Shown piece after piece: positions 7,157 to 64,000 of a stretch of 64,000 bases of DNA. Location of the stretch: contig JAJDTM010000046.1 of NCBI GenBank assembly GCA_022827185.1, positions 68,644-132,643 of the forward strand. Reading direction: 5' to 3'. Position 1 is the stretch's first letter. Each line of letters starts with the position of its first letter. The position numbers and the translations under genes were made by a program. This DNA is from Candidatus Poribacteria bacterium. GTDB taxonomy: Bacteria > Poribacteria > WGA-4E > WGA-3G. A model generated the notes under the pieces. The model was not told where the DNA came from, did no database searches, and saw only the letters and a list, made by a program, of their open reading frames with translations.

Positions 7157-7157
7157 A

Positions 7158-21871: not shown

Positions 21872-21902
21872 GATGGCTTTTATTCCTTTTTCGTGTTTAG
21901 GT

Positions 21903-29520: not shown

Positions 29521-29543
29521 GTTTGATTGTTTTCTTACTTGGT

Positions 29544-30509: not shown

Positions 30510-30523
30510 GAGAGAACCCTTTA

Positions 30524-30596
30524 GGACTTACGCAAATTTATTTAACCCCCTAAATCCCGCTTATCAGGGGGACTTTAAGAGGCAATGCGTAAGTCC
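30524..30596. repeat. Composite element: family-A hairpin (30544-30578) nested between family-B inverted termini (GGACTTACGCA ... TGCGTAAGTCC)
   Basis: Read directly from the sequence. It is intergenic, between the TolB-like and the large WD40 gene. Confidence 0.65.
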
Positions 30597-30807
30597 TATC
30601 CTTTATATCACTTATTCTGTTGATGTTCAAGTACGTTTGGTAGGTAGGTATTGAGAAATGGATAGGTGCCGCTTGAAAATAAGGTTTATGCCCTCAATTG
30701 CGAAGATAATAACATATTCGTCAAAAAAAAGTCAAGAAAAAGTCAAATAATTCTTTTTCTTGACGGATTCTACTGAAAAACATATCTTTGGTTGTCGCTA
30801 ATGGACG

Positions 30808-36921: not shown

Positions 36922-36948
36922 TCCGGATCCTCCAATCTTTTATTTTCA

Positions 36949-37036
36949 GGACTTAAGCATTTTTCTATGATAACCTATGTATTACGCACTGCAGGTGGGG
37001 TTTCAAACCTCACCTGCAGTGGGGGCTGCGTAAGTC
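36949..37036. repeat. Family-B element, full copy
   Basis: GGACTTAAGCATTTTTCTATGATAACCTATGTATTACGCACTGCAGGTGGGGTTTCAAACCTCACCTGCAGTGGGGGCTGCGTAAGTCC. The stem is mutated relative to 26184 but complementarity is preserved. Confidence 0.7.
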
Positions 37037-37086
37037 CTAATTTTTTGTGACACCGTGAAGTCGTTTAGGGTTTCAGCGTGAATAAA

Positions 37087-43697: not shown

Positions 43698-43926
43698 GTG
43701 ATATACGCCTACACCTGATGAGATGGCTTCTTTTCAACTAATGCCTTAAGCATAGCATCGGGACGCGGTATTGTCTCATCGCGGATTGCACAGATTTCGC
43801 AGATTTTTTGAATCTGTATCATCTAGCATTATAGGTGACCGGTATGAAATCCGCGTCATCCGTACTATCTGTGCAAATCCGAGATTCAGACGATTGCGAG
43901 ATTTCATCCTCAAAGAAATTGGGATT

Positions 43927-46581: not shown

Positions 46582-48017
46582 AAATAACCAATATTAAGAT
46601 TAAAAATTTCAGAGCTTTTCCGCAAATCTATCACATCAATCTTCATAATGCGGGGAAGAACTTACTTGTTTATGGAGAAAATGGGAGCGGAAAATCGTCA
46701 CTGTATCTCGCCCTAAAGTATTTTCTTGAATCCGGTGTGCCCGAAAATAGCGAGGATGACAGGAACCGGGCGTTTGAAACCCATCAAAATATCTTTACCG
46801 AGGATCTTGGTCATATCAAACTTCATTTCCGTTCAGAGCCTCAACGAGAGAAAGATACCTATGAGTGGTCAAGAGATGTTAAACAGACAACTGACGAGCT
46901 GATTATTGAAACGTCAAAGGCGAAAGGCTTTCTGGACTACAAGGTGCTATTGGAAACACACTATCTTCATCGTGAAAACGATATTGTGAATTTGTTCGAT
47001 CTGTTGGTTGAAGTGCTGCTGGCAAACACTATCAACCCCAGGACAGATAGACCTCTCACAGCGGACTGGAACGCCATTCAGCCTCCGTTTCCTCGCAGAG
47101 GTGCAAAACACCAAATTGCGGACCTGGAAAGACAGATAGTCAACTTCAACAGGGAGTTAGCAAACAGGTTAGCAGAATTAAGTCCGAAGGTGTCCGAAAT
47201 TCTCAACAAGTTTGGATACAAAGTCGCGCTTGACTTTGATTTTCAAGGCGTTACGTACAACCAGGGTGAGAAAACGCTTGATAACCGAGAGATTCTCTTA
47301 AAAGTTGAATTTTTTGATACAGATATACCTTCACATCACCGATTCCTGAACGAGGCAAAGCTGTCAGCAATTGCGATTGCTATCTATCTTTCGTCAATCT
47401 TGTGCTTGCCAGAACCAAAAGAAGGCATGAAAATTCTTGCGCTTGACGATGTGCTGATAGGTTTGGATATGTCAAACCGTCTGCCGGTTCTTGACATTCT
47501 GAACGAGTACTTCTCAGATTACCAAATCTTCTTGACGACTTACGATAAGGCGTGGTATGAGATTGCTAAACAACGGACAGACCAAAAAGACTGGAAATAT
47601 GCTGAATTCTATTTCTCCCAAACCGATGAGTATGAAATTCCGGTCTATGCAGAAGATAAGGCATACCTTGAAAAGGCGCGGGAATATCTTGATTTGAATG
47701 ACTACAAAGCCTGTGCAATTTACGTCCGAACCGCTTTTGAAGCGGTAATCAAACGATACTGTGAGAAAAGGAATCTTGCCATTAAGTATCGTGAAAATCC
47801 GAAAGACTTGAGAAGTGAAGATTTTTGGGTACCGATAAAAATGGAAATGGACGAAGCGGGCGACCTCCTTTTAGATCTAAGAGTTGTTGACAAAATTGAA
47901 TTGGCACGAAAATTTATCCTAAATGAACTCAGTCATGATACCTTCGTGAATATCTACAGAAAGGAACTTGAGGATGCAATTGACGCGGTTGCGGAACTTG
48001 AAGCTGCTTTAGCATAG
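46578..48017 (+). CDS. SMC/RecF-like ABC ATPase (AAA_15/AAA_21-type), translationally coupled to the TIR gene
   Basis: A GTG start overlaps the TIR-gene TGA (GTGA). The N-terminus reads IKIKNFRAF..., Walker A is GENGSGKSS, the D-loop/Walker B is ILALDDVLIGLD, and the signature/His region reads QIFLTTYD. Confidence 0.7.
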   Translation: MKITNIKIKNFRAFPQIYHINLHNAGKNLLVYGENGSGKSSLYLALKYFLESGVPENSEDDRNRAFETHQNIFTEDLGHIKLHFRSEPQREKDTYEWSRDVKQTTDELIIETSKAKGFLDYKVLLETHYLHRENDIVNLFDLLVEVLLANTINPRTDRPLTADWNAIQPPFPRRGAKHQIADLERQIVNFNRELANRLAELSPKVSEILNKFGYKVALDFDFQGVTYNQGEKTLDNREILLKVEFFDTDIPSHHRFLNEAKLSAIAIAIYLSSILCLPEPKEGMKILALDDVLIGLDMSNRLPVLDILNEYFSDYQIFLTTYDKAWYEIAKQRTDQKDWKYAEFYFSQTDEYEIPVYAEDKAYLEKAREYLDLNDYKACAIYVRTAFEAVIKRYCEKRNLAIKYRENPKDLRSEDFWVPIKMEMDEAGDLLLDLRVVDKIELARKFILNELSHDTFVNIYRKELEDAIDAVAELEAALA

Positions 48018-48337: not shown

Positions 48338-49663
48338 ATGCGACCTGCATTCAGACAAGCAAAAAGTCAAATTCCTCAAGTCACTTGCATCTTGGAGAAA
48401 AACATGGGAAAAAAACACAGTCAAAAACGCGCCGAGATGTATTACAAGCACGGGTTCGCTCAAAGGAAAAAAGCGGATTATGAGCGTGCTATTGTAGACT
48501 TTACCAAAGCGATAGAACACAATCCAGAAGATGTCTTTGCCTATACGAATCGGGGTGTAGTTTATTACAACAAGGGTAAGTTTTACCGTGCAGTCGATGA
48601 CTTTAGCAAAGTCATAAGCCTCACACCTGATGATGCATTTGCCTACTATGGCCGCGGGATGGCTTACCGCAATCTGCTGATTTTTGAGAAAGCCATCCAA
48701 GACTTTAGCACGGCGATACGTCTTAAACCCGATACGGCTGCTGATGCCTATACCGAGCGCGGTGTAACTTATCACACCAAAGGTGATGTAGACCATGAAG
48801 GTGATGTAGACCATGCTATTGAAGACTATAATGCTGCGATAGCACTGGATCCAGCGTTTGCACAGGCTTGGACGGCGCGCGGTAAAGCTTATCGTGATAA
48901 AGGCGAGATTGACAAGGCAATTGAAAATTACAACAAGGCGATTGAACTCAACCCAGAACTCGCTGAGCCTTATACCTACCGCGGTCTTATCTACACCGAA
49001 CAAGGCGCGGTAGACAAAGCGATTGAAGATCATAGCAAAGCGATCACGTGCAACCCAGAGTTTGCCGAAGCGTACGTTAATCGAGGGCAGGCTTACTACG
49101 CCAAAAACGAATTGGACCAGGCGATAGCAGATTATGACAAAGCCATAGAGATCGATTCAGAACTTGTGGAGGCATACACGTATCGGGGCAACGCGTATCG
49201 CGCTAAAGTCGAGTTAGACAGCGCAATTGCGGATTATACCGAGGCACTAAAACTCAGACCAAAGATTGCTGAATTCTATTACACACGGGGTGAGGCTTGG
49301 TTGCTTGCGAAAGGTTGGGAAGAGGCGAAGACCGACTTGACAGCTGCGCTCCTACAAGACATGGATGTCGCCGCTGCGTTTCACAATATCCACGGGAGCA
49401 TTGCTGCCTTTGAGGAGAAGATAGGGAGTCGTTTGCCGAGAGAGATTGTAGTATTATTGACACCGCGGAGCGAACCGTTTGAAATTGATAAAGATGCGCG
49501 GATCGCGTTGGGAATGAAGTATTATGGAAACGACGAACTCAGCAGTGGACTCGCAGCGCGCCTTGCAGGTGTCCCACGCGAAGATTTCTGGTACCTAATG
49601 GGGGATTACGGTCTCTCTCTCCTTACCCTTGATGAAGAAGAGCACGCCAAGAGCGGATTTTAA
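48338..49663 (+). CDS. TPR-repeat protein with shared post-TPR module and C-terminal UPF0175-type antitoxin domain
   Basis: TPR units are followed by AAFHNIHGSIAAFEEKIGSRLPREIVVLL. The C-terminal ALGMKYYGNDELSSGLAARLAGVPREDFWYLMGDYGLSL matches the UPF0175 antitoxin fold pattern. An alternative start is ATG at 48404. Confidence 0.6.
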   Translation: MRPAFRQAKSQIPQVTCILEKNMGKKHSQKRAEMYYKHGFAQRKKADYERAIVDFTKAIEHNPEDVFAYTNRGVVYYNKGKFYRAVDDFSKVISLTPDDAFAYYGRGMAYRNLLIFEKAIQDFSTAIRLKPDTAADAYTERGVTYHTKGDVDHEGDVDHAIEDYNAAIALDPAFAQAWTARGKAYRDKGEIDKAIENYNKAIELNPELAEPYTYRGLIYTEQGAVDKAIEDHSKAITCNPEFAEAYVNRGQAYYAKNELDQAIADYDKAIEIDSELVEAYTYRGNAYRAKVELDSAIADYTEALKLRPKIAEFYYTRGEAWLLAKGWEEAKTDLTAALLQDMDVAAAFHNIHGSIAAFEEKIGSRLPREIVVLLTPRSEPFEIDKDARIALGMKYYGNDELSSGLAARLAGVPREDFWYLMGDYGLSLLTLDEEEHAKSGF

Positions 49664-49666: not shown

Positions 49667-50158
49667 ATGCCGATACAACCAGTTGTTAGCAATAACAGTC
49701 CGCTTGTGGGACTTTTGGGGATCAATCTGCTTTCTCTGTTGCGAGATCTTTATACAGAGGTATGGATTCCACGAAAAGTTGAAAAGGAGTTTCTCAGAAA
49801 GGATCCGATAGTCCGCCGGGAGGCACTCGAAAATGCTCCCTGGATTAAAACTGTTGATTTAACGGATCCGCGAACCGCTGCGGTTCATGCGGAACTTGAT
49901 GAGGGTGAAGCCGAGGCATTGGCTCTTGCTAATGAACATGACGCTCGTCTCGTTCTTCTTGATGAAAAGAAAGGAAGACAGAAAGCCAAGCAAATTGGAT
50001 TAACGGCTATGGGGATAGTAGGCGTTTTGCAAGAGGCGAAGGAAGAAGGCTTGATTGATGCCATCAAGCCGCTTTTAATTCGGTTGCAGGATAACGGAAT
50101 CCACCTGAGCGAATCGCTCATCAATAACGCCCTACAAGACGCAGGTGAGGCAGATTAG
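49667..50158 (+). CDS. DUF3368-type PIN-domain protein (toxin partner of UPF0175)
   Basis: The conserved acidic residues of the DUF3368/PIN fold are present (VVSNNSPLVGLLGI..., ...DEGEAEALALA..., LVLLDEKKGRQKA). It starts 3 nt after the TPR-UPF0175 stop. Confidence 0.65.
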   Translation: MPIQPVVSNNSPLVGLLGINLLSLLRDLYTEVWIPRKVEKEFLRKDPIVRREALENAPWIKTVDLTDPRTAAVHAELDEGEAEALALANEHDARLVLLDEKKGRQKAKQIGLTAMGIVGVLQEAKEEGLIDAIKPLLIRLQDNGIHLSESLINNALQDAGEAD

Positions 50159-51133: not shown

Positions 51134-52543
51134 ATGCAAGAACTGATCCAGGGTTCTGTGGATACTTATTACAACAGCGATTTTGCCGAGGTGAAAAGAG
51201 AAGACGACGCAGCAAGACATAACACCCAAGGCATCGCTTATAGTAAAAACGGTGAGCACGCACGCGCAATCGCAGCCTTCAACAAGGCGGTAAAACTGGA
51301 TCTACATTTTGCCGAGGCTTATTACAATCGCGGATGCGCTTATGACGGCAAAGGCGATTATGAAAAAGCAATTGAAGACTATTGCGCAGCGATCAAGCAC
51401 AATCCCAATTTTGCTGAGGCATACAACAACCGCCGTAACACATATAAGAAAAAAGGCACCGCATATAAAACCTACGGAGATTATAGTATAGCGATAAAGT
51501 TGGCTCCACAACTGACTGAGGCATATTACAATCGAGGGACCGACTCTCTCAAAGAAGGTTCCTATAACGATGCGATTAGAGATTATGACACGGCAATAGA
51601 ACGCCAGCCAAAGTTTCCGCAATTTTATAATGCTCGCGGTGTCGCTTACGAAAATGACAGCGAGATTTTGGCTGTGCTTTCACGCTATAAGGTAGCAGTA
51701 GGGCTGGAGGCGAGAGTCCCTAAAGTCCGTATATCTTACGGAGAGGAATACTACAGTGAAGCGGAACTCCGTGCTGCTATTGAAGACTATAGCACAGCGA
51801 TCGATTTGAAACCGAATTATGCCGAGGCGTATTTCAATCGTGGGAGAGCACACTTCAAAAAAGGTGAGAGTGATGCCGCTATCAAAGACTATAGTACAGC
51901 AATCGCTTTGAAATCAGATTACGCCGAGGCGTATCTCAACCTTGGTGTGGCTTATGACAGCAGAGATGAGTTTGACGCTGCACTCGAAAACTATAATATA
52001 TCCGTATCCCTCGCCTCTGATCTCCCGATTGCTTACAGTCATCGAGGTGCTGCTTCCCTCCGTAAAGGTAAAGTAAAATCAGCGATTGAAGACTATAACA
52101 CAGTCCTATCTCTCAATCCCGATTACACAGCGGTGTATTACAAGCGCGGGATAGCATGGTTATATGTGAGAGAGTGGGAGAAAGCGAAAACCGACCTGAT
52201 TGCCGCCAAAGATAGAGGTATGGCTATCATGCAGACGTTCCATGACGATTACAGAAACGTGGTAACGTTTGAACAGAAAACGGGTGTTCATTTACCTGAA
52301 GACATAACGGGATTGCTAATTCCACAAAAAGGGCTTGCCGAACTGGAAAAGGAAACTCGGCTGGCGTTGGCATTGAAATATTATAAAAGCGGCGCGATCA
52401 GTACCGGACTCGCTGCGCAATTGGTAGGTATATCCCGCGAAGCGTTCTGGTATCTTATGGGGGATTACGGGCTCTCTCTGTTTGAGCTAACTGAAGATCT
52501 ACTTGCGGAGCTCGATAATGCCTCCAAGACCAATTATCAGTAA
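51134..52543 (+). CDS. TPR-repeat protein with shared post-TPR module and C-terminal UPF0175-type antitoxin domain (second copy)
   Basis: A good RBS (GAAGGAGAG) precedes the start. The module reads TFHDDYRNVVTFEQKTGVHLPEDITGLL and the C-terminus reads ALALKYYKSGAISTGLAAQLVGISREAFWYLMGDYGLSL. Confidence 0.6.
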   Translation: MQELIQGSVDTYYNSDFAEVKREDDAARHNTQGIAYSKNGEHARAIAAFNKAVKLDLHFAEAYYNRGCAYDGKGDYEKAIEDYCAAIKHNPNFAEAYNNRRNTYKKKGTAYKTYGDYSIAIKLAPQLTEAYYNRGTDSLKEGSYNDAIRDYDTAIERQPKFPQFYNARGVAYENDSEILAVLSRYKVAVGLEARVPKVRISYGEEYYSEAELRAAIEDYSTAIDLKPNYAEAYFNRGRAHFKKGESDAAIKDYSTAIALKSDYAEAYLNLGVAYDSRDEFDAALENYNISVSLASDLPIAYSHRGAASLRKGKVKSAIEDYNTVLSLNPDYTAVYYKRGIAWLYVREWEKAKTDLIAAKDRGMAIMQTFHDDYRNVVTFEQKTGVHLPEDITGLLIPQKGLAELEKETRLALALKYYKSGAISTGLAAQLVGISREAFWYLMGDYGLSLFELTEDLLAELDNASKTNYQ

Positions 52544-53015
52544 TAATAGTCCGCTCGTTGCACTTTTAGGACTTGACCTTCTTTCTTTATTACGCGAACT
52601 TTACACTGAGGTATGGATTCCTGAAGAGGTCAAAGCGGAGTTTCTTGGGGTAGAAAGAATGCACCGCCTGCAGGCACTTAACGATGCTCCATGGATTAAA
52701 ACCGTTCATTTGACAGATGTAACGGACGTATCAACTTATGTGAGAAGCGGACTTGATCTTGGTGAAGCCGCCGTATTCGCGCTTGCCAAAGAACACGATG
52801 CTCAATTTGTCATTATTGATGAACTCAAGGCGCGACAGCATGCTGCGAGAATCGGATTATCTTTTAAAGGCACGCTTGGCATTTTGCTTGAGGCGAAGGA
52901 AGAAGGCTTGATTGATGCCATCAAGCCGCTTTTAATTCGGTTGCAGGATAACGGAATCCACCTGAGCGAATCGCTCATCAATAATGCCCTACAGGACGCG
53001 GGTGAGGTGGATTAA
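52518..53015 (+). CDS. DUF3368-type PIN-domain protein (second copy)
   Basis: It is paralogous to 49667..50158; the C-terminal 60 aa are nearly identical. I trimmed the start to ATG at 52518 (MPPRPIISNNSPLVALLG), which overlaps the upstream TPR gene end. Confidence 0.65.
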   Translation: MPPRPIISNNSPLVALLGLDLLSLLRELYTEVWIPEEVKAEFLGVERMHRLQALNDAPWIKTVHLTDVTDVSTYVRSGLDLGEAAVFALAKEHDAQFVIIDELKARQHAARIGLSFKGTLGILLEAKEEGLIDAIKPLLIRLQDNGIHLSESLINNALQDAGEVD

Positions 53016-54110: not shown

Positions 54111-54145
54111 TCCGATCTTTCGTCAGATATTAAATCGTGAAGGGT

Positions 54146-54235
54146 GGAACTCACGCAAATTACTTTGCAGGCGAGGTTTTAAACCTCGCCTGCGGCGTAT
54201 GGGCCGCAGGTTCTCATTAGAAAATGCGTAAGTCC
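54146..54235. repeat. Family-B element (degenerate left terminus, intact hairpin GGCGAGGTTTTAAACCTCGCC and right terminus)
   Basis: Read directly from the sequence. Confidence 0.55.
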
Positions 54236-54239
54236 TAAT

Positions 54240-57200
54240 CTATTCTTCTGCAAGCGCGATGTGAAATATCCCGCGATCTTTGATAGAACTATAGAGTTTA
54301 TCGTTAATAACGACGAGGGAAACGACTTCACCCAGAACTTCTGAAGAGATTCGCTCCCATCGACTCTTGGTATCCAAGCGATAGATTCCAATATCGCCAG
54401 CCCCATAAACTGTGGGACCATCCACAGCAAATCTGTCTATGATAGGAGGCGTACCGACACTATCGGTTAGCACGCGCCAGTGTGCGCCGGTTTCTGAACT
54501 CAAGACCCCTTCGTCTGTTGCGACATAAACTGTTGTATCTGCAAAGGTTATCTCGTTGAAACGGGTAAAGTGAAGCGGTAGACTGGGTGTAACATCTCTC
54601 CAGCTGCTTCCTCCATCAAACGACTGAAACAGTTTACCATCGCGTTTGCCGACATAGATGGTTTCGCCTGAAACCGCTAATTTGAGATCTTGGCTGTCAT
54701 CGTCATAAGACGCTTGGCTCATGTCTGTTAATCCTGTGCTTGTCCATTCCAGATCACCAAGTCTCCTCTTAAAAAGCCTACGTCCGTATTCAGCATAGAA
54801 CACATCGTCACAGACTACGACTGTTGTGCCTTTCACGTCACAGGCTACGACTGTTGTAGCTTCCTCGTCCTTTCCAAGGACAGGAGGTGGAATGATTGAT
54901 ACAATTGATTGATGCTCTTTTTCAGAACCGTCAGATAAGTAGGGCTCTTTCGCTTCATTGCTACCTGTCGGTAACTGATGGAGTGATGCTTCATCAAAAG
55001 TGGGTATGCTTTGAACTGGAGCGAGTATATTCCGGTCTGTAGATAAGCCGAAAATTTGCAAGCTGTTTTGCAAGTTGTCATCTATATCTACATGTGAAAG
55101 AAGATAAAGATTGTTGTCATCAGTTATCAATTTTGAGTTAAAGAAGTGAGAGATATGAGCACTGTCCGGTTTTGATTCTTCATTTGTAATTGTAGACACC
55201 TTCCCTAAAGACCCCTCGGCAATTGAGAGTTTTTTCCAAGACACACCTTCGTCAGTTGATTGATACACCGCATAACCATTATGCGCGTATAACCTGTCGT
55301 TGAACGCAACCAAATTCTCCAATCTTGTTCCCACCATTCCATCTATAAGTAATTGCCACGATTTCCCGCCATCAGTCGTACGATGAATTCCAAAGAGACC
55401 AACTTTGTAGAACGTCATCTCGTTTACTGCTACAGATGGAAGACTATTGGTCATGAACAGCTCCGAATCCCCCAAAAGTTCTGTCCAAGTTTTTCCGTTA
55501 TCTGTTGAGCGATGGCGTTGGTCGCCAGTTGACGCTAAAAGCACTTCACCAACAGCCAAAATCTTCATACCAGATGGTATGTATCGATCGTAAGATTTAT
55601 AACTGGGTGTTATTTCCGTCCATGATGTTCCCAAGTTAGCCGAATGGAAAATTTTGAGAACATGCGACTCATTTCTTGGCACTTCTTGTTCTACCTCGAT
55701 TGGCGTGAGTCCCAACAGATTGGGACCTGTTCCAACATAAAGATTATTCTCAGACGCTGCCAAGGCGTAGATGGCTCTGGATGTTTCCACCGGCAACTTT
55801 TTCCAAGTGCCTGAATCGAGACGATAGAGACCGCGTGCTGTGCCAGCAAACACTGTTTTTTCGACAGTAGCGACTGTGGAAATCGTTTTGTTTGCTAATC
55901 CGTCATTAAATAGGTGCCATTGTGTCCCACTGTCTGTAGATCGATAAATTCCTTCATCTCTGAGGGCAAGATACATCGTAGAACGGGCGTGTGTTGTTTC
56001 ATCCGTGATGATGAGACCAACAGCGTGTCCCTTGGGTCTGTGACCAATCGTCCGCCACGTTTCGCCGCTATCACCTGAAGCAAATATTTCATCAGTGGAT
56101 ACTATGTAAAGCGTACCACCATACTCTGCCATTGGCATTAGCGATTCACCGATTGGAATATCTGTGTTGATGCGTGTCCACACCGTCGCATCTGTTCCTA
56201 ATTTGTGTATTCCTGCCGGAGCAACAGCATAGACGGTCCCTTCAGATGTAGCGAAAATATCGCGGACGTGCCCACCTGGTGGTGCGCTGCCCTGCGTCCA
56301 CTGCGAAGTAGAAAATTTGGCGGAATCCTCCAATGTAGCAGATGTTGTGGTAGTTGTAGAGACTTGTGTGCTAGTTCCGCTGCTTTTACCTACGGAAGCA
56401 GCCCGACCCGCTTGATTTCGCACAGCTGGTTTCACCGCAATATCGAGAATGATAGGTGTGTCAATGATCTCAATGGTAGGTTCGGATTGTGCTTCAAAAC
56501 TGTACGGCTTCTGAAAACGCGCAAGGTACGCGTTGCTCACACCGAGCAGCAGTATAACCAAAACAGCGGCAGTTCCAAAAGCCGCCCACGGTAGCAAAGG
56601 TTTGCCAACCGGAGGCGATATCGGTTTGATATTAGCCACTTCCTGCATAATGCGCTCAGTTACTTGGGCGGGGAATGGGATGCTCCCAAGTGTTTCGCTG
56701 ACCAATAGTTCTTCCTGCCGTTCCTGTAAACGCTCGCGTCCGCGGTGAAGTCGACTTTTAACTGTGTTGACTGACACACCTAAGAATTTCCCAATTTCCT
56801 TCGCCGTCATTTCTCCGAGATAAAAGAGTGTCACCACCGTGCGTTCGCTCTCCGGCAGCTTTGCCAAAAGTTTTTTGACGAGTTCATGGCGATTCTCAGT
56901 GATCTCTGTCTGCCGTTGTTCAGATAGGTGACGCGTATAAGAGAGTTTCTCAATTTCTTCTATAGGTGTGGCTTCCAGTGATTGCCTCACGATTTTATTT
57001 TTTTGAAGCCATTTACTGCAAAGTCGATCGGCAATTACATAAATCCATCCTGCAAACTGGTTCGGATTTTTTAGCTGAGCGAGGTTCTTGTATACTGAAA
57101 GGAAAGTGTCTTGCGTAATCTCTTCAGCAATGTGAAAATCGCCCACTTTTCGCCACGCCAGCGCGTGAATACTCTTTTGGTGTTTTTGGACTAAAACACT

Positions 57201-57263
57201 GAATGCTTCATCGTTACCTGATAAAATTCTACGAATCAATTGAACATCGTTTTCTCGTTCCAT
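54240..57263 (-). CDS. ECF (group 4) sigma-70 factor fused via a single TM helix to a large extracytoplasmic BNR/Asp-box (Sortilin/Ycf48-like) beta-propeller domain
   Basis: Sigma region 2 is ...DFHIAEEITQDTFLSVYKNL... and region 4 is ...LFYLGEMTAKEIGKFLGVSVNTVKSRLHRGR... The hydrophobic segment is LLPWAAFGTAAVLVILLLGV. More than eight S/T-x-D-x-G-x-T/S-W BNR motifs follow (STDSGTQW, STDNGKTW, TTDGGKSW, STDEGVSW, SFDGGSSW...). Confidence 0.75.
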   Translation of the reverse strand: MERENDVQLIRRILSGNDEAFSVLVQKHQKSIHALAWRKVGDFHIAEEITQDTFLSVYKNLAQLKNPNQFAGWIYVIADRLCSKWLQKNKIVRQSLEATPIEEIEKLSYTRHLSEQRQTEITENRHELVKKLLAKLPESERTVVTLFYLGEMTAKEIGKFLGVSVNTVKSRLHRGRERLQERQEELLVSETLGSIPFPAQVTERIMQEVANIKPISPPVGKPLLPWAAFGTAAVLVILLLGVSNAYLARFQKPYSFEAQSEPTIEIIDTPIILDIAVKPAVRNQAGRAASVGKSSGTSTQVSTTTTTSATLEDSAKFSTSQWTQGSAPPGGHVRDIFATSEGTVYAVAPAGIHKLGTDATVWTRINTDIPIGESLMPMAEYGGTLYIVSTDEIFASGDSGETWRTIGHRPKGHAVGLIITDETTHARSTMYLALRDEGIYRSTDSGTQWHLFNDGLANKTISTVATVEKTVFAGTARGLYRLDSGTWKKLPVETSRAIYALAASENNLYVGTGPNLLGLTPIEVEQEVPRNESHVLKIFHSANLGTSWTEITPSYKSYDRYIPSGMKILAVGEVLLASTGDQRHRSTDNGKTWTELLGDSELFMTNSLPSVAVNEMTFYKVGLFGIHRTTDGGKSWQLLIDGMVGTRLENLVAFNDRLYAHNGYAVYQSTDEGVSWKKLSIAEGSLGKVSTITNEESKPDSAHISHFFNSKLITDDNNLYLLSHVDIDDNLQNSLQIFGLSTDRNILAPVQSIPTFDEASLHQLPTGSNEAKEPYLSDGSEKEHQSIVSIIPPPVLGKDEEATTVVACDVKGTTVVVCDDVFYAEYGRRLFKRRLGDLEWTSTGLTDMSQASYDDDSQDLKLAVSGETIYVGKRDGKLFQSFDGGSSWRDVTPSLPLHFTRFNEITFADTTVYVATDEGVLSSETGAHWRVLTDSVGTPPIIDRFAVDGPTVYGAGDIGIYRLDTKSRWERISSEVLGEVVSLVVINDKLYSSIKDRGIFHIALAEE

Positions 57264-57471
57264 CAGAATACTCCGTGATTATGATCCGCCGAGTTTGGAT
57301 AGACACAGCGGTAGATAGACAAGTTCTCTCAATATCAAGGCACTTTCCTATTGGAAAGTATACCAAACACAACAGTAAAATGAAACCCATAAATTTGAAA
57401 CATTATTTGGGCTGTCTATAATTATTAAAGATACGATTTTGAGGCGGAAAGGGTGCATAATCTGAAAAATA

Positions 57472-57559
57472 GGACTTACGCAATTTTCCTACGAATAGCG
57501 ATTATCATGCGCCGCTGGCAAGGTTTGAAACCTCGCCAGCGATGAAGCTGCGTAAGTCC
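57472..57559. repeat. Family-B element, full copy
   Basis: GGACTTACGCAATTTTCC...GCTGGCAAGGTTTGAAACCTCGCCAGCGATGAAGCTGCGTAAGTCC. Confidence 0.65.
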
Positions 57560-57561
57560 CG

Positions 57562-58290
57562 CTAATTTGGCGGCATCGGCTCTTTGAGGTGTTCTAAAGC
57601 CGCTTGTGCGCTCACAATCTGTTTCCTTGCGTGTTCAAAGTTTTTCTTACTGTATTCGATCTGCACTTTGGCGCGTTCGACTTGTTCCTTACTGCGTTCA
57701 ATGGTGCGTTCAATTTCCACTTTGGTGCCTTCAATCTCCGCTTTGGTGCCTTCAATGTCTACCAGCATGTTGATGTAAGCCGCTTTATAGGTTTCCCAGT
57801 CATCCGTCGGTGGAATATCAAGAACGCCTGACTGCCACAGATTCGGATTGTCTTCCAGCAATGCCAAAGCATGCCGTTGTGACAGATTGGACACATACTC
57901 GTAGAGGGTTCCTATGATGATGCCTCTGTCCAAAAGCAGCTGAAGCCACTCCGCCCGTGGATACCTTGCATCTATCTCACTTATTGTAAGGTTACTGCTA
58001 TAACTTTCAGTTTCTGTCCCGTTGCCCTTGCGCGATAGGCGGACTTCGGTTTTTGCGTGTCCCTTATTGTAATCCGCATCTAAAGCTTTCATCAGTTCCT
58101 TGGCATCTTGGGGACCGGTGTATTTCTTGTCGCTGGGCGGTGCTTTCTCGTTGAATTCAATGCTTACACGGAACCGCATACTCGGTGATATAATTTCAAG
58201 TTCAGTGGTTGTCATTGAAGATGTCCCGGATACCGAATGTACACAGAACCGCATTTCAAGAGCGTTTGCACTGTGAGAAGTCCTTTTCAT
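57562..58290 (-). CDS. Hypothetical protein with C-terminal coiled-coil heptad repeats
   Basis: 242 aa with repeated EGTKAEIEGTKVEIERTIERSKEQVERAKVQIE. No recognisable domain. Confidence 0.4.
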   Translation of the reverse strand: MKRTSHSANALEMRFCVHSVSGTSSMTTTELEIISPSMRFRVSIEFNEKAPPSDKKYTGPQDAKELMKALDADYNKGHAKTEVRLSRKGNGTETESYSSNLTISEIDARYPRAEWLQLLLDRGIIIGTLYEYVSNLSQRHALALLEDNPNLWQSGVLDIPPTDDWETYKAAYINMLVDIEGTKAEIEGTKVEIERTIERSKEQVERAKVQIEYSKKNFEHARKQIVSAQAALEHLKEPMPPN

Positions 58291-58439: not shown

Positions 58440-59855
58440 TCAAATATCTGACCGGAAGAATTTCAGAAACGCCAAAGTCGTCAACACCACCGCAAAGAAG
58501 CATAGGAAGAGCACATCCACCAGTGAGTGCCTTAACGTTTCATCTAAAGAAGGGACTGCTATAGGCGGTGGCTGCGCAATTGTGTCGAGATCATCCGGAT
58601 GGTAACTTCTTACGGAAGCGTGATCTACTATTTTACTGAACAGATCCGCGTGAAGTGCGCCATAATAACGATCCGCTGCTTCAAAGTAGTTGTGTTTCTT
58701 AACCTTTCCGGTCTGTGTCAAGTTCGTGGTGAGATAAATTAGGGAAGCGGTCGGTGTGATTCGTGAGAGGGTCTCGCCGACCTTTTCCTGTCGCGCTTTC
58801 TCGCGCTGATAGTTCCGATCTATCTGGTCGGTGCGATCCGCGAATTTCTGCTTATATGTGCCTTCAAGCGGTTGCACCAGTTTATCGAACTCCGCTCCTA
58901 CTGCAAACATCTGTTCATAGGAAGCTTTCGGACGATCTTTCCAGAATTCTTGGTGTATCTCCTTTTTTCTTTCTTCAAGTTCAGCATTGAAATTCTCGCG
59001 GAGTGCGGTCTTTTCGAGATAAACGCTCTGCGAGGTTTTTGTGGGTACGATTAATTTCGCCGCGACAAACCCGATGCGTGGCACAATCAGCACAGCGAAT
59101 ACCCAGACAGTGAAGGCGACGATGAGTGCTGTTTTAGCGTTATCTAAATAGGTGGAAATCACCGTGCCAATGGCGAAAAATACGCCGATGTAGAGCAGCG
59201 CGGCGAGCATCAGACTCATGACGCGTGGGAAAACCTCTGGCTCACCGAGGGGAAACCCTTGCCAGACGATGACGAGTAAACCGAAGAGAAACGCTACCAA
59301 AAACGGCACCACGAACACGATGTATCCGCCAATGAGTTTGCTCCATAAAAAGAGGTCGCGTGGGAGGGCGTTCGCTAAATTAATCCGCAACGTGCCGGCT
59401 TCTCTTTCCCCAGCAACTGCATCGAAGGTAAACAACAGCGCAAGCAAACTGAAGACGGTGCCGACGACAAACAGAAAATCGAGATGCCCTAAAAGGTGGG
59501 CAATAGAGTCGGAAACGGTCGCCGGTGGCCCTTGGGTAATCCCATTACGCGTCATCCCAAGATAACTTGGCAGTGCGTCCCCCAATCCATTTGCGAAAAC
59601 GCTCAAGGGTGTCGGTTTGAAGAAGAGTTTAGAGACTTCCAGCTCCGGTTCCAGTTCCATACTCGGATTTATGATCTTTTCTTCGACGTTTGACAGTTTA
59701 ATGGATTCTTGGTAATCCAAAAGGTTTTTACGATAGTTTTGATGATTGATAGAGAGGGTTAACGGAACAAGCAATAGACACATCAAAAGGAGCATAACGA
59801 ACCGGACGCTCAGAATATGATGCATCATCTCTTTTTGAATTAACGTCATTAACAT
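58440..59855 (-). CDS. ABC-2 family transporter permease-like membrane protein
   Basis: Multiple TM helices and the ABC-2 hallmark DAVAGEREAGTL after TM1, with a long soluble insertion. No cognate ATPase is adjacent. Confidence 0.5.
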   Translation of the reverse strand: MLMTLIQKEMMHHILSVRFVMLLLMCLLLVPLTLSINHQNYRKNLLDYQESIKLSNVEEKIINPSMELEPELEVSKLFFKPTPLSVFANGLGDALPSYLGMTRNGITQGPPATVSDSIAHLLGHLDFLFVVGTVFSLLALLFTFDAVAGEREAGTLRINLANALPRDLFLWSKLIGGYIVFVVPFLVAFLFGLLVIVWQGFPLGEPEVFPRVMSLMLAALLYIGVFFAIGTVISTYLDNAKTALIVAFTVWVFAVLIVPRIGFVAAKLIVPTKTSQSVYLEKTALRENFNAELEERKKEIHQEFWKDRPKASYEQMFAVGAEFDKLVQPLEGTYKQKFADRTDQIDRNYQREKARQEKVGETLSRITPTASLIYLTTNLTQTGKVKKHNYFEAADRYYGALHADLFSKIVDHASVRSYHPDDLDTIAQPPPIAVPSLDETLRHSLVDVLFLCFFAVVLTTLAFLKFFRSDI

Positions 59856-59945
59856 GTTGAATTCTCCTTATAGTTGCTCTTTCATTAGTCCTGTATAATT
59901 ATTAATGATCCGATTTGAAAGTGGAAAGGGTGCATAAAGTGAAAA

Positions 59946-60188: not shown

Positions 60189-63182
60189 CTATTCTTCTTC
60201 AAGCGCGATATGAAATATTCCGCGATCTTCTATAGCACTATAGAGTTTATCGTTAATGACGGCGAGTGCAACAGTTTCGCCGAGTGCTTCTGAAGACATT
60301 TTTTTCCATTGATTACCGGTATCCAAGCGGTAGGCTCCGGTATCGCTAACACCATAGATTGTGGGACCATCCACAGCAAATCTGTCTATGATAGGACGCG
60401 TACCCGCATTATCGGTTAGCACGCGCCAGTGTACACCGGTTTCTGAACTCAAGACCCCTTCGTCTGTTGCGACATAAACTGTTGAATCTGCAAAGGTTAT
60501 CTCGTTGAAACGGGTAAAGTGAAGCGGTAGACTTGGCGTAACGTCTCTCCAGCTGCTCCCGCCATCAAGCGACTGAAACAGTTTACCATCGCGTTTCCCG
60601 ACATAGACGGTTTCTTCCAAAGCCGCTAATTTGAGTTCCATCCTGAGGTCTTCATAAGACCGTTGGTCCCTGTCCGTTAATCCTGTGTTTGTCCATTTCG
60701 GATCACCAAGTCTCCACTTAAAAAGCCTACGTCCCTGCTCAGCATAGAACACATCGTTACAGACTGCGACCATTCTGGCTTTCGCGTCCTTCTCACGTAT
60801 AGGCGGTGGAACGATTGGGACGACTGCGTGATGCGCTTTTTCGGGGCCCTCAGATAAGTGCGTCTCTTTCGCTGTCTCGCTACTTGTCTCTAACTTACGG
60901 AACAGTGCTTCATCATCAGAAGGGGGTATGCTTTGAACGGGACTGCGTATATCGACCTCTGTGGATAAACGGGCAATTTGCAAGTTGTCATCTTTAGGTG
61001 AAACAAAATAAAGATTGTTGTTATCAACTGCCAATTTTGAATGAAAAGAGGTGTAGACGCGAGCCTTGTCCGGCTTTGATGATTCAGTTGCAGTCGCCTT
61101 CATGAAAGATAGTTCGGCACTTGAGAGGTTTTTCCAAGACACACCTTCGTCAGTTGATTGATAGAGCGCGAAGCCAGTATGCGCGTATAATCTGTTGTTG
61201 AAGGCAACCAAATCCTGTAGCCTTGTTCCCACCATTCCATCTATAAGTAGGTGCCCCGACTCCCCACCATCAGTTGTGCGGAAAACACCGAAGGGGCCCG
61301 CTTTGTAAAATGTATTCTCATTCACCACCACGGCTGGCAGCCTATTCACCATGAGCATATCCGTATCTCCTATCATTTCTGTCCAAGTTTGTCCGTTATC
61401 TGTTGAACGATATCGGTGCTCGGCAGTCGAAGCTAAGAGGATGTCACGTCCAGCCGAAATCATCATGCCAGCGGGTACCACTCGATCATAGGCTTTATAA
61501 TTGGGTGTTATTTCAGTCCACGACGCGCCGAAGTCAGCCGAGTGGAAGATCTTGACCGCATACGCCTCAATTTTTGGTACTTCTCGTTCTGTTCCTATTG
61601 GCGTGAATCCCAACAGCTCCGGCCCTGTCCCAATGTAGAGGTTATTCTCAAACACCGCCAAGGCGTAGATGGCTCTTGATGTCTCCACCGGCAGCTTTTT
61701 CCAGGTGTCTGAATTGAGGTGATAGAGACCGCGCGCTGTACCCGCAAACACTGTTTTTCCAACAGCAGCGACTATAGAAATCTCTTTACTTGCTAATCCG
61801 TCGTTAAATGCGTCCCAATGTATTCCACCGTCTGTAGATCGATAAATTCCTTCATCTCTGAGGGCAAGATACATCGTCCGATGTGCTTGTGCGTAAGAGC
61901 GAGGTGCCCTCGCCGCTACTTCTTCATCCGTGATGATGAGACCGACAGCATCTCCCTTTGGTCTGGTACCGATTGTCCGCCATGTTTCACCCCTATCGCC
62001 CGACGTAAATATTTCATCGGTGGATACTATGTAAAGGGTGCCACTATGTTCTGCCATCGGCATTAGCGATTTACCAATTGGAATATCCGTGTTGATGCGT
62101 GTCCACGTGGTCGTATCTGTTCCTAATCTGTATATGCCTGTCGGAGCAATAGCATAGAGAGTCCCTTCAGATGTAGCGAAGATATCGCGGACGTGTCCAC
62201 CTGGTGGTGCGCCTCCCAGCGTCCACCGCCCGGTAGAAAATTTGGCAGGGTCCTCCACCGATGCTGTTGTAGTTGTAGCGACTTGTGTGCCGGTGCCGCT
62301 GCTTTTACCGGCGGTAGCAGCCTGTCCAACTCGGTTTCGTACTGCTGGTTTTGCCGTAGTATTGAGAATGATGGGTGTGTCAATGATTTCAATAGTCCGT
62401 TCAGATTGTGCTTCAAAACTGTACGGCTTCTGAAAACGGACAAGATATTGAGCGATCGCACCGAACAGCAATATGACCAAAACGGTAGCAGTTCCAAGAG
62501 CCACCCACGGTAGCAAAGGTTTGCCAACCGGAGGCGCGGTCGGGTTAATGTCAGCGACTTGCCGCATGATACGTTCGGTTACTTGGGCAGGGAATGGGAT
62601 ATTCCCGAGTGTTTCGCGTACTAACGGTTCTACCTGCTGTTCCTGTAAACGCTTGCGTCCCCTGCGAAGTCGGCTTTTAATCGTATTTACTGACACACCT
62701 AAAAATTTTCCGATCTCCTTCGCTGTCATTTCTCCGAGGTAGTGGAGGGACACTACCGTGCGTTCACTCTCAGGCAGTTTTGATAGCAGTTTTTTGACGA
62801 GTTCATGCCGATCCTCGGCGACCTCTGCCTGCCGTTGGTCTGCTACGTGATGCGTATAAGAGGATTTCTCGATTTCTTCCATAGGTGTGTCTTCCAATGA
62901 TTGCGTCGTGAATTTATTTTTTTGAAGCCACTTTAGACAGAACCGATTGGCAATTACATAAACCCAACCCGAAAACTGGTTCGGATTTTTCAGCTGCGCG
63001 AGGTTCTTGTATACCGAGAGGAAAGTGTCTTGTGTAATCTCTTCAGCGATGTGAAAATCGCCGACTTTCCGCCACACCAGCGCGTGAATACCCTTTTGGT
63101 GCCTACGGACTAAAACACTAAATGCCTCATCGTTGCCTGATAAAATTCTGCGAATCAGTTGAACATCGTTTTCTTTTTCCAT
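60189..63182 (-). CDS. ECF sigma factor-TM-BNR beta-propeller fusion (paralog of 54240..57263)
   Basis: 997 aa, ~85% identical to the first copy, with the same domain order and BNR motifs. Confidence 0.75.
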   Translation of the reverse strand: MEKENDVQLIRRILSGNDEAFSVLVRRHQKGIHALVWRKVGDFHIAEEITQDTFLSVYKNLAQLKNPNQFSGWVYVIANRFCLKWLQKNKFTTQSLEDTPMEEIEKSSYTHHVADQRQAEVAEDRHELVKKLLSKLPESERTVVSLHYLGEMTAKEIGKFLGVSVNTIKSRLRRGRKRLQEQQVEPLVRETLGNIPFPAQVTERIMRQVADINPTAPPVGKPLLPWVALGTATVLVILLFGAIAQYLVRFQKPYSFEAQSERTIEIIDTPIILNTTAKPAVRNRVGQAATAGKSSGTGTQVATTTTASVEDPAKFSTGRWTLGGAPPGGHVRDIFATSEGTLYAIAPTGIYRLGTDTTTWTRINTDIPIGKSLMPMAEHSGTLYIVSTDEIFTSGDRGETWRTIGTRPKGDAVGLIITDEEVAARAPRSYAQAHRTMYLALRDEGIYRSTDGGIHWDAFNDGLASKEISIVAAVGKTVFAGTARGLYHLNSDTWKKLPVETSRAIYALAVFENNLYIGTGPELLGFTPIGTEREVPKIEAYAVKIFHSADFGASWTEITPNYKAYDRVVPAGMMISAGRDILLASTAEHRYRSTDNGQTWTEMIGDTDMLMVNRLPAVVVNENTFYKAGPFGVFRTTDGGESGHLLIDGMVGTRLQDLVAFNNRLYAHTGFALYQSTDEGVSWKNLSSAELSFMKATATESSKPDKARVYTSFHSKLAVDNNNLYFVSPKDDNLQIARLSTEVDIRSPVQSIPPSDDEALFRKLETSSETAKETHLSEGPEKAHHAVVPIVPPPIREKDAKARMVAVCNDVFYAEQGRRLFKWRLGDPKWTNTGLTDRDQRSYEDLRMELKLAALEETVYVGKRDGKLFQSLDGGSSWRDVTPSLPLHFTRFNEITFADSTVYVATDEGVLSSETGVHWRVLTDNAGTRPIIDRFAVDGPTIYGVSDTGAYRLDTGNQWKKMSSEALGETVALAVINDKLYSAIEDRGIFHIALEEE

Positions 63183-63296
63183 CAGAATGCTCCATGATTA
63201 TACAGTAGTAAGTAGACGAATTCTCTCAATATCAAGTCACTTTCCTACCGGAAAGTATACCAAACACAACAGTAAAATGAAACCTTTAATATACCC

Positions 63297-64000
63297 TTAA
63301 AACTGCTTCAAGTTTCCCCAAGTGGTTGCAAGTTTTGTTCTCGGTGTTACAGATTTTGGAATATCGTCCCCGGTGGTGATGCTAAAGTTATCAAAAAGCA
63401 CGGAGTAATTTGAGACCCCGAAACCGACTTTACCCTTCGGATAGTCAGGAAACTCGACCTCCACGTGTTCAAATTTTTTCGCTTCTAAAATTACGGGTCC
63501 GAGAACTTGCTTGCCATTAATCCAAAAAGTCAAGTGTTTTCCATGAACGCTCAACTTCAGGTGAGACCATTTTTTGACGCTTAAGGAGCGATAAGGTTTC
63601 GTTTCATAGTCCAGAACAGCATTTCCATTCGGCAAGCGACGCCCAGAACAACGAGCCATGGATTTAGGTTCGGGTACCGGCATGTCTCCAATTGTACAGA
63701 GGACTCCCCATGTCTGATCTTTTTTGGTCTGATGAATCCGCGATGCAATCACAATATGGGCAGGTCCATGTTTTCGGAGCGGTTTAACGTCAACTTCAAT
63801 ATCGTAATCTTGCCACTCTTCATCCCCGATCACAAATAAACGCGTCACACGATCAGCACCAATTACTAAAGACTCGAGTTGACCGCCAGCAATTTTCCAA
63901 GAATGGACACCGGGAGGTCCATGAAATATTGTCAGTTCCTGCCACTGTTTTATAATATCTCTATCATCAAAAGTTTCCAGAAACACCTCTGCCCCTGCGG
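63297..64000 (-). CDS. DUF1080 (3-keto-disaccharide hydrolase / laminin-G-like) family protein; 5' end runs off the window
   Basis: ...HSWKIAGGQLESL... and ...HLKLSVHGKHLTFWINGKQVLG... match the DUF1080 pattern. The reading frame is open to position 64000. Confidence 0.5.
   Translation of the reverse strand, partial: AGAEVFLETFDDRDIIKQWQELTIFHGPPGVHSWKIAGGQLESLVIGADRVTRLFVIGDEEWQDYDIEVDVKPLRKHGPAHIVIASRIHQTKKDQTWGVLCTIGDMPVPEPKSMARCSGRRLPNGNAVLDYETKPYRSLSVKKWSHLKLSVHGKHLTFWINGKQVLGPVILEAKKFEHVEVEFPDYPKGKVGFGVSNYSVLFDNFSITTGDDIPKSVTPRTKLATTWGNLKQF

Follow-up and report, generated by a model that had tools for sequence, protein, structure and literature searches.

A predicted family of membrane-anchored ECF sigma factors with exchangeable ectodomains in Candidatus Poribacteria

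Architecture of the sigma factor fusion

The stretch of DNA analysed here (the window) comprises 64,000 nucleotides of a Candidatus Poribacteria assembly (GCA_022827185.1, contig JAJDTM010000046.1, positions 68,644 to 132,643 of the forward strand), and is of interest for gene A, which occupies 54240..57263 on the minus strand and encodes an extracytoplasmic function (ECF) sigma factor, predicted to be anchored in the membrane, with a twin-propeller ectodomain. The open reading frame (ORF) of gene A begins at an ATG, encodes 1007 amino acids and coincides exactly with the one that a first-pass annotation, made from the sequence alone, had assigned to a sigma factor fused to a beta-propeller. 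A protein identical to its product (P0001) is encoded on a 195.6-kb metagenome scaffold, and comparison of gene A with its orthologs and paralogs yields ratios of non-synonymous to synonymous substitution rates (dN/dS) of 0.24-0.39, with every frame intact. Gene B (60189..63182, minus strand), which lies ~3 kb from gene A, encodes a 997-aa paralog of the same architecture that is 71% identical over its full length, and which has the same Pfam matches, the same single transmembrane helix and six Asp-boxes.

Both sigma-70 regions that had been recognised in the first-pass annotation, 2 and 4, were recovered in Pfam profile searches above the curated cut-offs. Region 2 (Sigma70_r2) matches residues 24-90 (56994..57194, minus strand) at 43.1 bits, against a cut-off of 24, and region 4, the helix-turn-helix that would bind the -35 element, extends over residues 127-181 (56721..56885, minus strand), where Sigma70_r4_2 matches residues 127-179 at 60.5 bits (cut-off 25.7) and Sigma70_r4 scores 50.1 bits. 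The domain set of an ECF (group 4) factor is complete in gene A, with no Pfam match to sigma region 1 or 3; Sigma70_ECF (PF07638) also exceeds its curated cut-off, over residues 8-182, and TIGR02937 (sigma70-ECF) scores 94.9 bits with a cut-off of 42.9. The closest solved structure to this part of the protein is SigW of Bacillus subtilis (5wuq; residues 9-183, E 3e-23), while the NCBIfam SigW models, at 108.6 bits, fall far under their equivalog cut-off of 209. Judged by these profiles, the N-terminus of gene A is a complete ECF (group 4) sigma factor.

The sigma domain is followed by a short cytoplasmic linker (residues 186-221, ELLVSETLGSIPFPAQVTERIMQEVANIKPISPPVGK; 56601..56708, minus strand), so that ~35 residues separate sigma region 4 from the membrane. 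The linker contains no Cys or His and one conserved helix (…LTExIMxEI…), placed by AlphaFold2 at residues 199-210; T202, I205, K221, P222 and P225 are invariant or nearly so across the family, and the KPxxPW sequence at the membrane entry is invariant. Because this gap is so short, and because Pfam and NCBIfam searches of gene A returned no ZAS, FecR or FecI signature, the protein has no anti-sigma domain. The earlier description of a 'sigma/anti-sigma-like' single polypeptide is thus borne out with regard to the single polypeptide and not with regard to an anti-sigma domain; it holds for gene A only in the sense of membrane tethering.

One transmembrane helix had been proposed to follow the sigma domain, and is placed here at residues 222-244 (56532..56600, minus strand). 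Kyte-Doolittle hydropathy (19-residue values up to 2.2) identifies one hydrophobic stretch per protein, at ~222-244, in both paralogs, AlphaFold2 places a helix at 226-250 in its full-length model of the gene A product, and a single helix at about residue 220 recurs in nearly all of 150 family representatives. Net charges flanking the helix in 122 sequences, +1.9 before it and -0.5 after it, support an N-in/C-out orientation under the positive-inside rule, and these signals in combination support a single-pass N-in/C-out membrane protein. Family conservation delimits an adjoining extracytoplasmic juxtamembrane motif (residues 245-290; 56394..56531, minus strand), which reads YLxRFQxPYSxxAxSExT[IV]E[IV]xDxPI[IV]…KPxxRNQxG, and which is common to members carrying BNR, WD40, LRR (leucine-rich repeat) and other ectodomains. 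Beyond it, a low-complexity Ser/Thr-rich stretch (residues 291-334; 56262..56393, minus strand), evident from the sequence and modelled as coil with a low predicted local distance difference test (pLDDT) score, may serve as a stalk. Conservation, measured across 122 aligned N-terminal regions as the average share of sequences with the most frequent residue at a position, is greatest in sigma-2 (0.70) and sigma-4 (0.73), intermediate in the post-sigma-4 linker (0.57), the transmembrane helix (0.53) and the juxtamembrane segment (0.60, residues 245-280), and least in the stalk (0.32). The juxtamembrane motif, which comes close to the sigma domains in conservation, is a candidate site-1 cleavage or docking element.

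The remaining ~670 residues (335-1007; 54243..56261, minus strand) form the ectodomain, in which at least eight S/T-x-D-x-G-x-T/S-W motifs had been claimed. Asp-box repeats are indeed present, albeit as seven canonical copies and a degenerate one: [ST]x[DN]xGxxW is matched at residues 396, 442, 541, 586, 629, 669 and 881, a degenerate box (SSETGAHW) occurs at residue 922, and the exact pattern first given is fitted by only five motifs. Across 20000 shuffles of the sequence the mean number of matches was 0.02 and the maximum 2, compared with the seven seen, and in the ectodomain model each Asp-box is placed between strands three and four of a blade. This model (residues 321-1007) was built from a diverse alignment of 102 sequences and reached a pLDDT of 77.6 and a predicted template modelling score (pTM) of 0.76; the full-length model was poor (pLDDT 53.5), reflecting a shallow alignment of sequences 73-88% identical, and was used for secondary structure only. 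Some 14-15 blades can be counted in the ectodomain model, together with a disordered insert at ~754-812.

Searches of the PDB with Foldseek returned xyloglucanases of glycoside hydrolase family 74 (GH74) as all of the top 21 matches (E 1e-20 to 1e-17), with template modelling (TM) scores of 0.46-0.64 and 12-16% identity, and a sequence profile search recovered the GH74 chain 2cn3_A at E 1e-19. GH74 enzymes consist of twin seven-bladed propellers that form a polysaccharide cleft (PMC9103125), and the ectodomain of gene A is predicted, from its model and these matches, to be a GH74-like twin seven-bladed propeller. The twin-propeller sensors BT4673 and BT4663 come after GH74 in the Foldseek results, with global TM scores of ~0.32. 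A Sortilin/Vps10 domain was considered as the identity of the ectodomain and rejected: although Sortilin-Vps10, PSII_BNR and DUF6242 all exceed their Pfam cut-offs in gene A, each does so over part of its profile only, the Sortilin-Vps10 match spanning no more than profile positions 2-61 of 446, and in the PDB profile search Sortilin (~E 1e-4) and Ycf48 are both far weaker than GH74. The 'sialidase/Sortilin-like sensor' of the first-pass annotation thus gives way to a GH74-like one.

Whether such a domain could retain the activity of GH74 enzymes depends on their catalytic residues, the first of which can be located by comparing two Clostridium thermocellum chains, 2cn2 (YARADIGG) and the mutant 2cn3 (YARAAIGG), which differ at one residue, the mutated catalytic Asp. 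In the profile alignment with GH74, which spans the first catalytic Asp only, this position aligns to Y345-A-V-A-P349-A-G351 of gene A, a stretch that is variable across the family and contains no acidic residue, the catalytic Asp being replaced by Pro or Ala. At least one GH74 catalytic Asp is therefore missing, and the ectodomain would appear to be a polymer-binding module that is non-catalytic, or at least not catalytic in the manner of GH74; most likely, it acts as a ligand-binding (probably glycan-binding) sensor. Separately, four database representatives (P0230, P0249, P0253 and P0204) comprise a GH74-like Asp-box ectodomain with no sigma module and only an N-terminal signal anchor (a hydrophobic helix at residues 15-41), which indicates that the ectodomain also exists as an independent secreted or anchored protein.

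A modular family and the motif upstream of its genes

The first-pass annotation had itself cautioned that a frameshift or assembly error might be joining two genes, one for a sigma and one for an anti-sigma factor. We found nothing in support of such an artefact, whether the second gene is taken to encode an anti-sigma factor or a BNR protein, and consider its probability negligible. Two intact paralogs lie within the window, and intact full-length homologs number in the thousands and come from assemblies and sequencing technologies that are independent of one another: of 7194 database matches, the best 120 all have lengths of 964-1012 aa and 100% coverage, and a scan of species-representative genomes located 80 full-length loci, 38-96% identical, in ~48 Poribacteria assemblies, including complete long-read chromosomes of 5-6.7 Mb (the 96% ortholog lies on the complete chromosome OZ253447.1) and the single-cell genome WGA-3G. 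No stop codon interrupts any of seven coding sequences that were aligned, and their dN/dS values are 0.10-0.17 (sigma part), 0.09-0.25 (linker plus transmembrane helix) and 0.30-0.42 (ectodomain). The intact paralog, the full-length homologs and purifying selection throughout the protein together refute the artefact and show the fusion to be genuine.

An exhaustive search of 1.84 billion cluster representatives returned 445 relatives at E<=1e-30, of which ~35, of the BNR type, align from end to end (37-73% identity). A large number of the rest, of 400-1380 aa, match only from residue 1 to ~300-350, at 45-65% identity, and end in WD40 propellers, LRR arrays or an M16-like domain. Poribacteria loci hold genes for WD40-type and short (~445 aa) members next to those of the BNR type, and as many as four family genes can occur within 15 kb. 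This pattern of conservation implies that the unit being reused consists of the sigma domain, the linker helix, KPxxPW, the transmembrane helix and YLxRFQxPYSxxAxSExT[IV]E[IV], and that the ectodomain is exchangeable; the sigma-transmembrane-juxtamembrane module is a conserved chassis that carries interchangeable BNR, WD40, LRR and other ectodomains. All named relatives among the top matches listed in the homolog searches and the genome scan belong to Candidatus Poribacteria, and a search begun from the most divergent N-terminal module again listed only Poribacteria names. The family is very large and, among the matches listed, has so far been found only in Poribacteria. The analogy that had been drawn with planctomycetal sigma-transmembrane-WD40 proteins is better than could have been known from the window, as homologs with the same N-terminal module (45-65% identical) do carry WD40 domains, and some of them adjoin BNR-type genes in Poribacteria.

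At loci L042, L048 and L055, three or four family genes that differ in their ectodomains stand in tandem within 15 kb (at L048, for example, 3780-5108, 5998-8868, 11410-14190 and 14403-15002). These arrays mix the short ~445-aa, BNR and WD40 types, and most of their genes are preceded by the TGCACC-N18-GTC motif described below. The short type is very common, and its ectodomain has no Pfam match.

Upstream of family genes lies a recurrent bipartite element, TTATGCACC(C)TTT-N-AAAA-N-(C)GT(A/C/G)TC(A/T)TTAAT, which can be read as a candidate ECF-type promoter, TGCACC-N18-(C)GTC. A profile built from 31 sites was run with nhmmer (E<1e-3) on 1.13 Mb of loci together with the window, and gave 70 matches, compared with none in shuffled sequence. 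The motif is co-oriented with a family gene in 66 of the 70 matches and stands directly upstream of one in 38, including paralogs 38-45% identical and a WD40-type gene; further matches precede genes for ABC-2 permeases (9), ABC ATPases (2) and DUF1080-like proteins (3), as well as a Trypsin_2-TPR protease gene and genes for other signal-peptide proteins or lipoproteins. The heptamer ATGCACC occurs 130 times on the plus strand and 52 times on the minus strand, and only the plus-strand copies are followed by the downstream consensus. The window holds only two copies, both on the minus strand. The first (TTATGCACCC-N-…CGTATCTTTAAT; 57416..57461) is the best nhmmer match (E 1.7e-9) and ends 152 nt before the ATG of gene A; the second (59895..59937; E 8.4e-8), an exact match to TTATGCACCCTTT, ends 39 nt upstream of the start of an ABC-2 permease gene.

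The promoters recognised by SigW conform to the consensus TGAAAC-N16-CGTA. More generally, AAC at -35 and CGT at -10 are the hallmark of ECF promoters (PMC8103513). The geometry of the Poribacteria motif resembles both. Paralogs differ little in those regions of the sigma domain that recognise promoters, as would be expected if they had one motif in common, and by analogy with the autoregulation typical of ECF sigma factors, we infer that the family's own sigma domains recognise TGCACC-N18-(C)GTC. Covariation between sigma residues and the -10 and -35 positions of the motif could be assessed in 22 usable pairs, which are phylogenetically confounded.

Closer to the start codons of genes A and B lies a shared leader block (57305..57387 and 63202..63284, respectively, both on the minus strand), the existence of which had been noted previously and is confirmed here by alignments and nhmmer (E 1.9e-25 for the gene B copy). 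The ECF-type promoter that had been sought within this block lies instead upstream of it at gene A, as the 57416-57461 copy, and is absent from the intergenic region of gene B. The two copies of the block are identical at 74 of 83 bases, compared with 82% identity in coding DNA, and contain GGTTTCA-N17-TGGTATACT, which resembles a sigma-70 extended -10 promoter, followed by a TTTCC-N4-GGAAA palindrome and then by TTGATA…TGTCTA. In nhmmer searches the block was found only upstream of relatives at least 62% identical in protein sequence, where its distance from the ATG is constant. It has the appearance of a leader specific to this subfamily, comprising a sigma-70-like extended -10 and then a palindrome. 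Two other identities were tried and rejected: a structured 5' untranslated RNA, as the block has no Rfam match and compensatory changes at none of 23 predicted RNA pairs; and GGAAAG…TGTCTA as the family ECF promoter, as its spacer of ~22 nt, read manually, does not fit and the block is restricted to close relatives.

Proposed signalling through a membrane-anchored sigma factor

To our knowledge, ECF sigma factors with fused regulatory extensions constitute the least understood branch of bacterial signal transduction, and we know of only a handful that have been studied, almost none of them with a transmembrane sensor. ECF01-Gob, reportedly described by Jogler et al. in 2012, is a planctomycetal type that joins a sigma factor through a transmembrane helix to WD40 repeats. 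ECF57 likewise combines an ECF sigma factor with WD40-like repeats (PMC8999054), and planctomycetal ECF factors have been duplicated with unrelated C-terminal extensions, which are exchanged after duplication (PMC7671368). The Poribacteria family shares with these groups the order of an ECF core and then a large repeat or propeller extension, and with the planctomycetal factors in general the coupling of duplication to extension exchange, including WD40 members of its own. It differs in that gene A, compared with ECF01-Gob by description, has no WD40 match, having instead Asp-box/BNR repeats and a GH74-like fold; in that the named relatives among the matches listed are all Candidatus Poribacteria; and in its juxtamembrane motif, which has no described counterpart in the planctomycetal groups.

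Similar architectures are also found in other phyla. IutY of Pseudomonas putida (ECF243) comprises an N-terminal ECF sigma factor, one transmembrane helix and a periplasmic domain in a single polypeptide. It is a sigma/anti-sigma hybrid that undergoes regulated intramembrane proteolysis for its activation, its anti-sigma domain is complete and FecR-like, its periplasmic domain is that of FecR, and it works with a TonB-dependent receptor (PMC8999054); gene A, by contrast, has ~35 residues between sigma-4 and the membrane, no FecR/FecI signature, and a propeller as its putative sensor. The actinobacterial groups ECF52 (SCO4117), ECF48 and ECF53 resemble gene A in linking an ECF factor to transmembrane helices and an extracytoplasmic domain, which in ECF52 binds carbohydrate, and proteolytic activation has been proposed for all three (PMC8999054, PMC5826349). 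These belong to another phylum, have another sensor fold, and carry a zinc-finger (HxxxCxxC-type, ZAS-like) anti-sigma element, located between sigma domain and membrane, and a Pro-rich region, whereas residues 186-221 of gene A are free of Cys and His. SigW, the best sequence match for the sigma part, has a similar promoter architecture and, at 187 aa, is not itself joined to the membrane, being held there by a second protein, the membrane anti-sigma factor RsiW, whereas in gene A the sigma factor itself would be anchored in the membrane. Typical ECF factors have their cognate anti-sigma gene adjacent; no anti-sigma-type gene adjoins gene A, which has the fused transmembrane helix and ectodomain in its place, much like the ECF groups that bear regulatory extensions. 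The likeness of the ectodomain to GH74 xyloglucanases, finally, lies in the twin seven-bladed propeller and is limited by 12-16% identity and the replacement of the first catalytic Asp. In Bacteroides, the hybrid two-component sensors BT4663 and BT4673 use twin propellers as periplasmic glycan sensors coupled to transcription; they superpose weakly on gene A (TM ~0.32), and their output is a kinase/regulator pair instead of a sigma factor. Thus, fused and sometimes transmembrane regulatory extensions of ECF factors are already established (ECF01-Gob, ECF57, ECF48/52/53, IutY). In the literature searched, which did not extend to the ECF Hub group tables, we found no description of the Poribacteria sigma-fusion family, of a GH74-like or BNR sensor on a sigma factor, or of the conserved juxtamembrane and TGCACC-N18-GTC motifs.

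The explanation that we favour, at slightly better than even chances, is that the products of gene A and its relatives are membrane-anchored sigma factors that are governed by a propeller sensor, released by proteolysis, and then activate promoters bearing the motif. At rest, the sigma domain would be held at the membrane and inactive. A signal at the ectodomain, presumably the binding of a ligand, would expose the conserved juxtamembrane segment to a site-1 protease, which would make the first cut in or near the motif; an intramembrane site-2 protease might then cut the transmembrane helix, aided by the helix-breaking residues P222, P225, G230 and G241, to yield a sigma fragment of ~220 aa. 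Once freed, this fragment would bind core RNA polymerase and transcribe from TGCACC-N18-(C)GTC promoters, the targets of which would include paralogous sigma genes, the neighbouring genes that encode ABC-2 transporters, DUF1080 lectin-like proteins and secreted proteases, and, by positive autoregulation, the sigma gene itself. Proteolytic activation has precedent in IutY, which is cut by Prc and RseP, with SCO4117 of ECF52 as a further example (PMC8999054).

Several observations weigh against this explanation. Neither a site-1 or site-2 protease gene nor an anti-sigma gene was found among the ORFs scanned in the window (those from 34.7 to 50 kb through annotation of the native contig only), and the secreted Trypsin_2-TPR protease described below is present in only four of the loci examined. 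The predicted topology is based on hydropathy and flank charge and not on a dedicated predictor, and with no anti-sigma domain, the tethered sigma factor might be active. The motif reads ACC at -35 where the canonical sequence is AAC, its spacer of ~17-18 nt is close to the upper limit among ECF promoters, it occurs within 300 nt of only about half of the family genes examined, and nhmmer finds none in the 114-nt intergenic region of gene B. It could belong to another sigma factor or regulator instead. Residual enzymatic activity of the ectodomain is conceivable, given that the second catalytic position lies outside the GH74 alignment. Last, the bacterium itself is uncultured.

The lack of an anti-sigma domain is also what makes a serious rival of the proposal that the sigma factor is never released, and instead recruits RNA polymerase and promoter DNA to the membrane in the manner of ToxR or CadC, with the ectodomain acting allosterically or via oligomerisation. 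The 35-aa linker and the sigma2-sigma4 unit might give enough reach for contact with RNA polymerase; conformational signals could be passed on by the linker helix and the juxtamembrane motif, both strongly conserved; the putative targets adjoin the sigma genes and encode mostly membrane or secreted proteins, which would suit transcription at the membrane; and no protease was found among the window ORFs scanned. Nonetheless, a sigma factor must cycle on and off core polymerase, and we know of no membrane-tethered sigma factor that works as a tethered activator. The characterised fused or sequestered ECF factors with transmembrane segments are, moreover, all activated by proteolysis (PMC8999054), and on balance we judge permanent tethering to be unlikely. 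Still somewhat less probable, in our estimation, is that the ectodomain, instead of being a receptor for a specific ligand, is a reporter of folding or integrity, or a decoy, the damage or degradation of which, by proteases of host or bacterial origin or under envelope stress for instance, triggers sigma release. The release logic would then be that of RseA and RsiW, and the higher dN/dS of the ectodomain (0.30-0.42) relative to the rest of the protein, the long disordered insert and the stalk, both of which could admit proteases, and the presence of the secreted protease gene in some clusters are all compatible with it. However, the many ectodomain types on one chassis are more easily explained by many specific inputs, and the GH74-like cleft architecture suggests polymer binding.

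That the protein is primarily a membrane-anchored extracytoplasmic glycan-binding protein or glycosidase, whose sigma-like domain has degenerated into an anchor or adaptor and plays no part in transcription, strikes us as highly improbable. Two thirds of the protein do belong to the ectodomain, which has GH74 enzymes as its relatives, and close to the corresponding motif in the second propeller there is an acidic residue, E825, that is conserved. Yet the sigma part is the best conserved portion (dN/dS 0.10-0.17; conservation 0.70-0.73) and scores above the cut-offs of all the ECF models; family genes are accompanied by an ECF-type motif; the ectodomain lacks the first catalytic Asp of GH74; and the same sigma module is fused to WD40 and LRR domains, which are non-enzymatic.

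Poribacteria probably use this family as a means of sensing the environment. A broader and more tentative proposal, which we offer as possible and would sooner doubt than assert, is that the expanded modular family of transmembrane sigma factors constitutes a major part of transmembrane signalling in Poribacteria; that its members share one promoter type, through which they cross-activate each other and local genes for transporters and secreted proteins; that the catalytically dead GH74-like propeller is a receptor for environmental, possibly sponge-host, glycans; and that the juxtamembrane motif is a family-specific proteolytic switch. Such a network of many sensors, one chassis and one promoter type would, if real, add to the interest of the family. 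The locus already exposes a very large family (>7000 sequence clusters), present in several copies per genome and often in tandem, which brings with it a candidate target promoter and a candidate local regulon, and thus a concrete, testable sigma/promoter pair suited to heterologous study. Its natural domain swaps bear on how an extracytoplasmic signal activates a membrane-anchored sigma factor, and they suggest a use for the 'eukaryote-like' repeat proteins of an uncultured sponge-associated phylum, as sensor modules. Orthogonality of such systems could also interest synthetic biologists.

Neighbouring genes and other features of the window

On the native contig, the genes around A and B are co-oriented in the order ABC-2 permease, secreted Trypsin_2-TPR protease, DUF1080-like protein, gene B, ABC-2 permease, 242-aa ORF and gene A, after which comes a convergent ThuA-like gene. 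The ABC-2-type transporter permease between genes B and A (58440..59855, minus strand; Pfam ABC2_membrane_2, E 2.6e-31) is a putative regulon member; at 26 of the 80 related loci, a homolog is encoded no more than 6 kb from the sigma gene. The 242-aa ORF that follows it (57562..58290, minus strand) has no Pfam match, and homologs occupy the same position in seven related loci. Upstream of gene B, and adjoining it, the gene for a secreted protein resembling DUF1080/3-keto-disaccharide hydrolases (Pfam 3keto-disac_hyd) occupies 63297..63986 on the minus strand; its true start, at ~64046, lies outside the window, and its product on the native contig is 249 aa long. A third copy of the ECF-type motif, just outside the window (L001:3113-3158), ends 60 nt upstream of the start of this gene, an arrangement that is repeated at the orthologous locus L002, and at 14 of the 80 loci a DUF1080 homolog is found no farther than 6 kb from the sigma gene. 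The DUF1080 gene and gene B are probably co-transcribed from this motif.

The protease gene of the sigma cluster (L001:1106-2935, equivalent to ~64329-66158 in window coordinates and thus outside it) encodes a secreted Trypsin_2 domain of HtrA/DegS-type fold and a long TPR array. Other copies occur at L038:10912-12744, with the motif directly upstream, and at L074:12982-14814. The protein is a candidate for the site-1 protease or for a regulon member.

Palindromic intergenic elements that resemble repetitive extragenic palindromes or miniature inverted-repeat transposable elements (REP/MITE-like) are scattered over the window. Their outer arms, (A/G)GGACTTACGCA and TGCGTAAGTCC(T/C), enclose a GC-rich inner hairpin (…GGCGAGGTTTcAAACCTCGCC…), and copies were located at 57471-57560, 54136-54236, ~1634, 17184, 19698, 26263, 30522-30598 and 36948-37038; a 12-mer from the element occurs 10 times, where 0.25 occurrences are expected. 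One copy lies just 3' of the gene A stop codon and another between the 242-aa ORF and the gene A promoter, and the copy at 57468-57566 folds at -46 kcal/mol (z = -5.96).

Several gene pairs on the plus strand deserve mention. A 936-aa TIR_2 and TPR protein (43771-46581) is encoded with a 4-nt overlap with the next gene, which specifies a 479-aa ATPase of AAA_15/AAA_21/SMC_N type (46578-48017), and together these could be an anti-phage defence pair. A toxin-antitoxin-like pair is formed by 51134-52543, a long TPR protein that ends in an antitoxin-like UPF0175 domain, and the overlapping DUF3368 (PIN-like) gene at 52503-53015, the fusion of a TPR array to UPF0175 being unusual; 48338-49663 and 49667-50158 form a similar pair. 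A 1142-aa ORF on the minus strand (2515-5943) has no Pfam match at E<=1e-5, and large proteins with C-termini resembling FlgD_ig/Por_Secre_tail are encoded at 12321-14123 and 14435-17164. Four stand-alone WD40 propeller proteins of 458-959 aa are encoded within 14 kb on the minus strand (19901-23618, 28171-29547 and 30808-33687), with a gene for a PD40 protein (29544-30509) adjoining them. The window also holds genes for TPR proteins, a sulfotransferase and a halogenase, and this gene content, including the stand-alone WD40 proteins, agrees with an origin in Poribacteria (compare PMC3909097).

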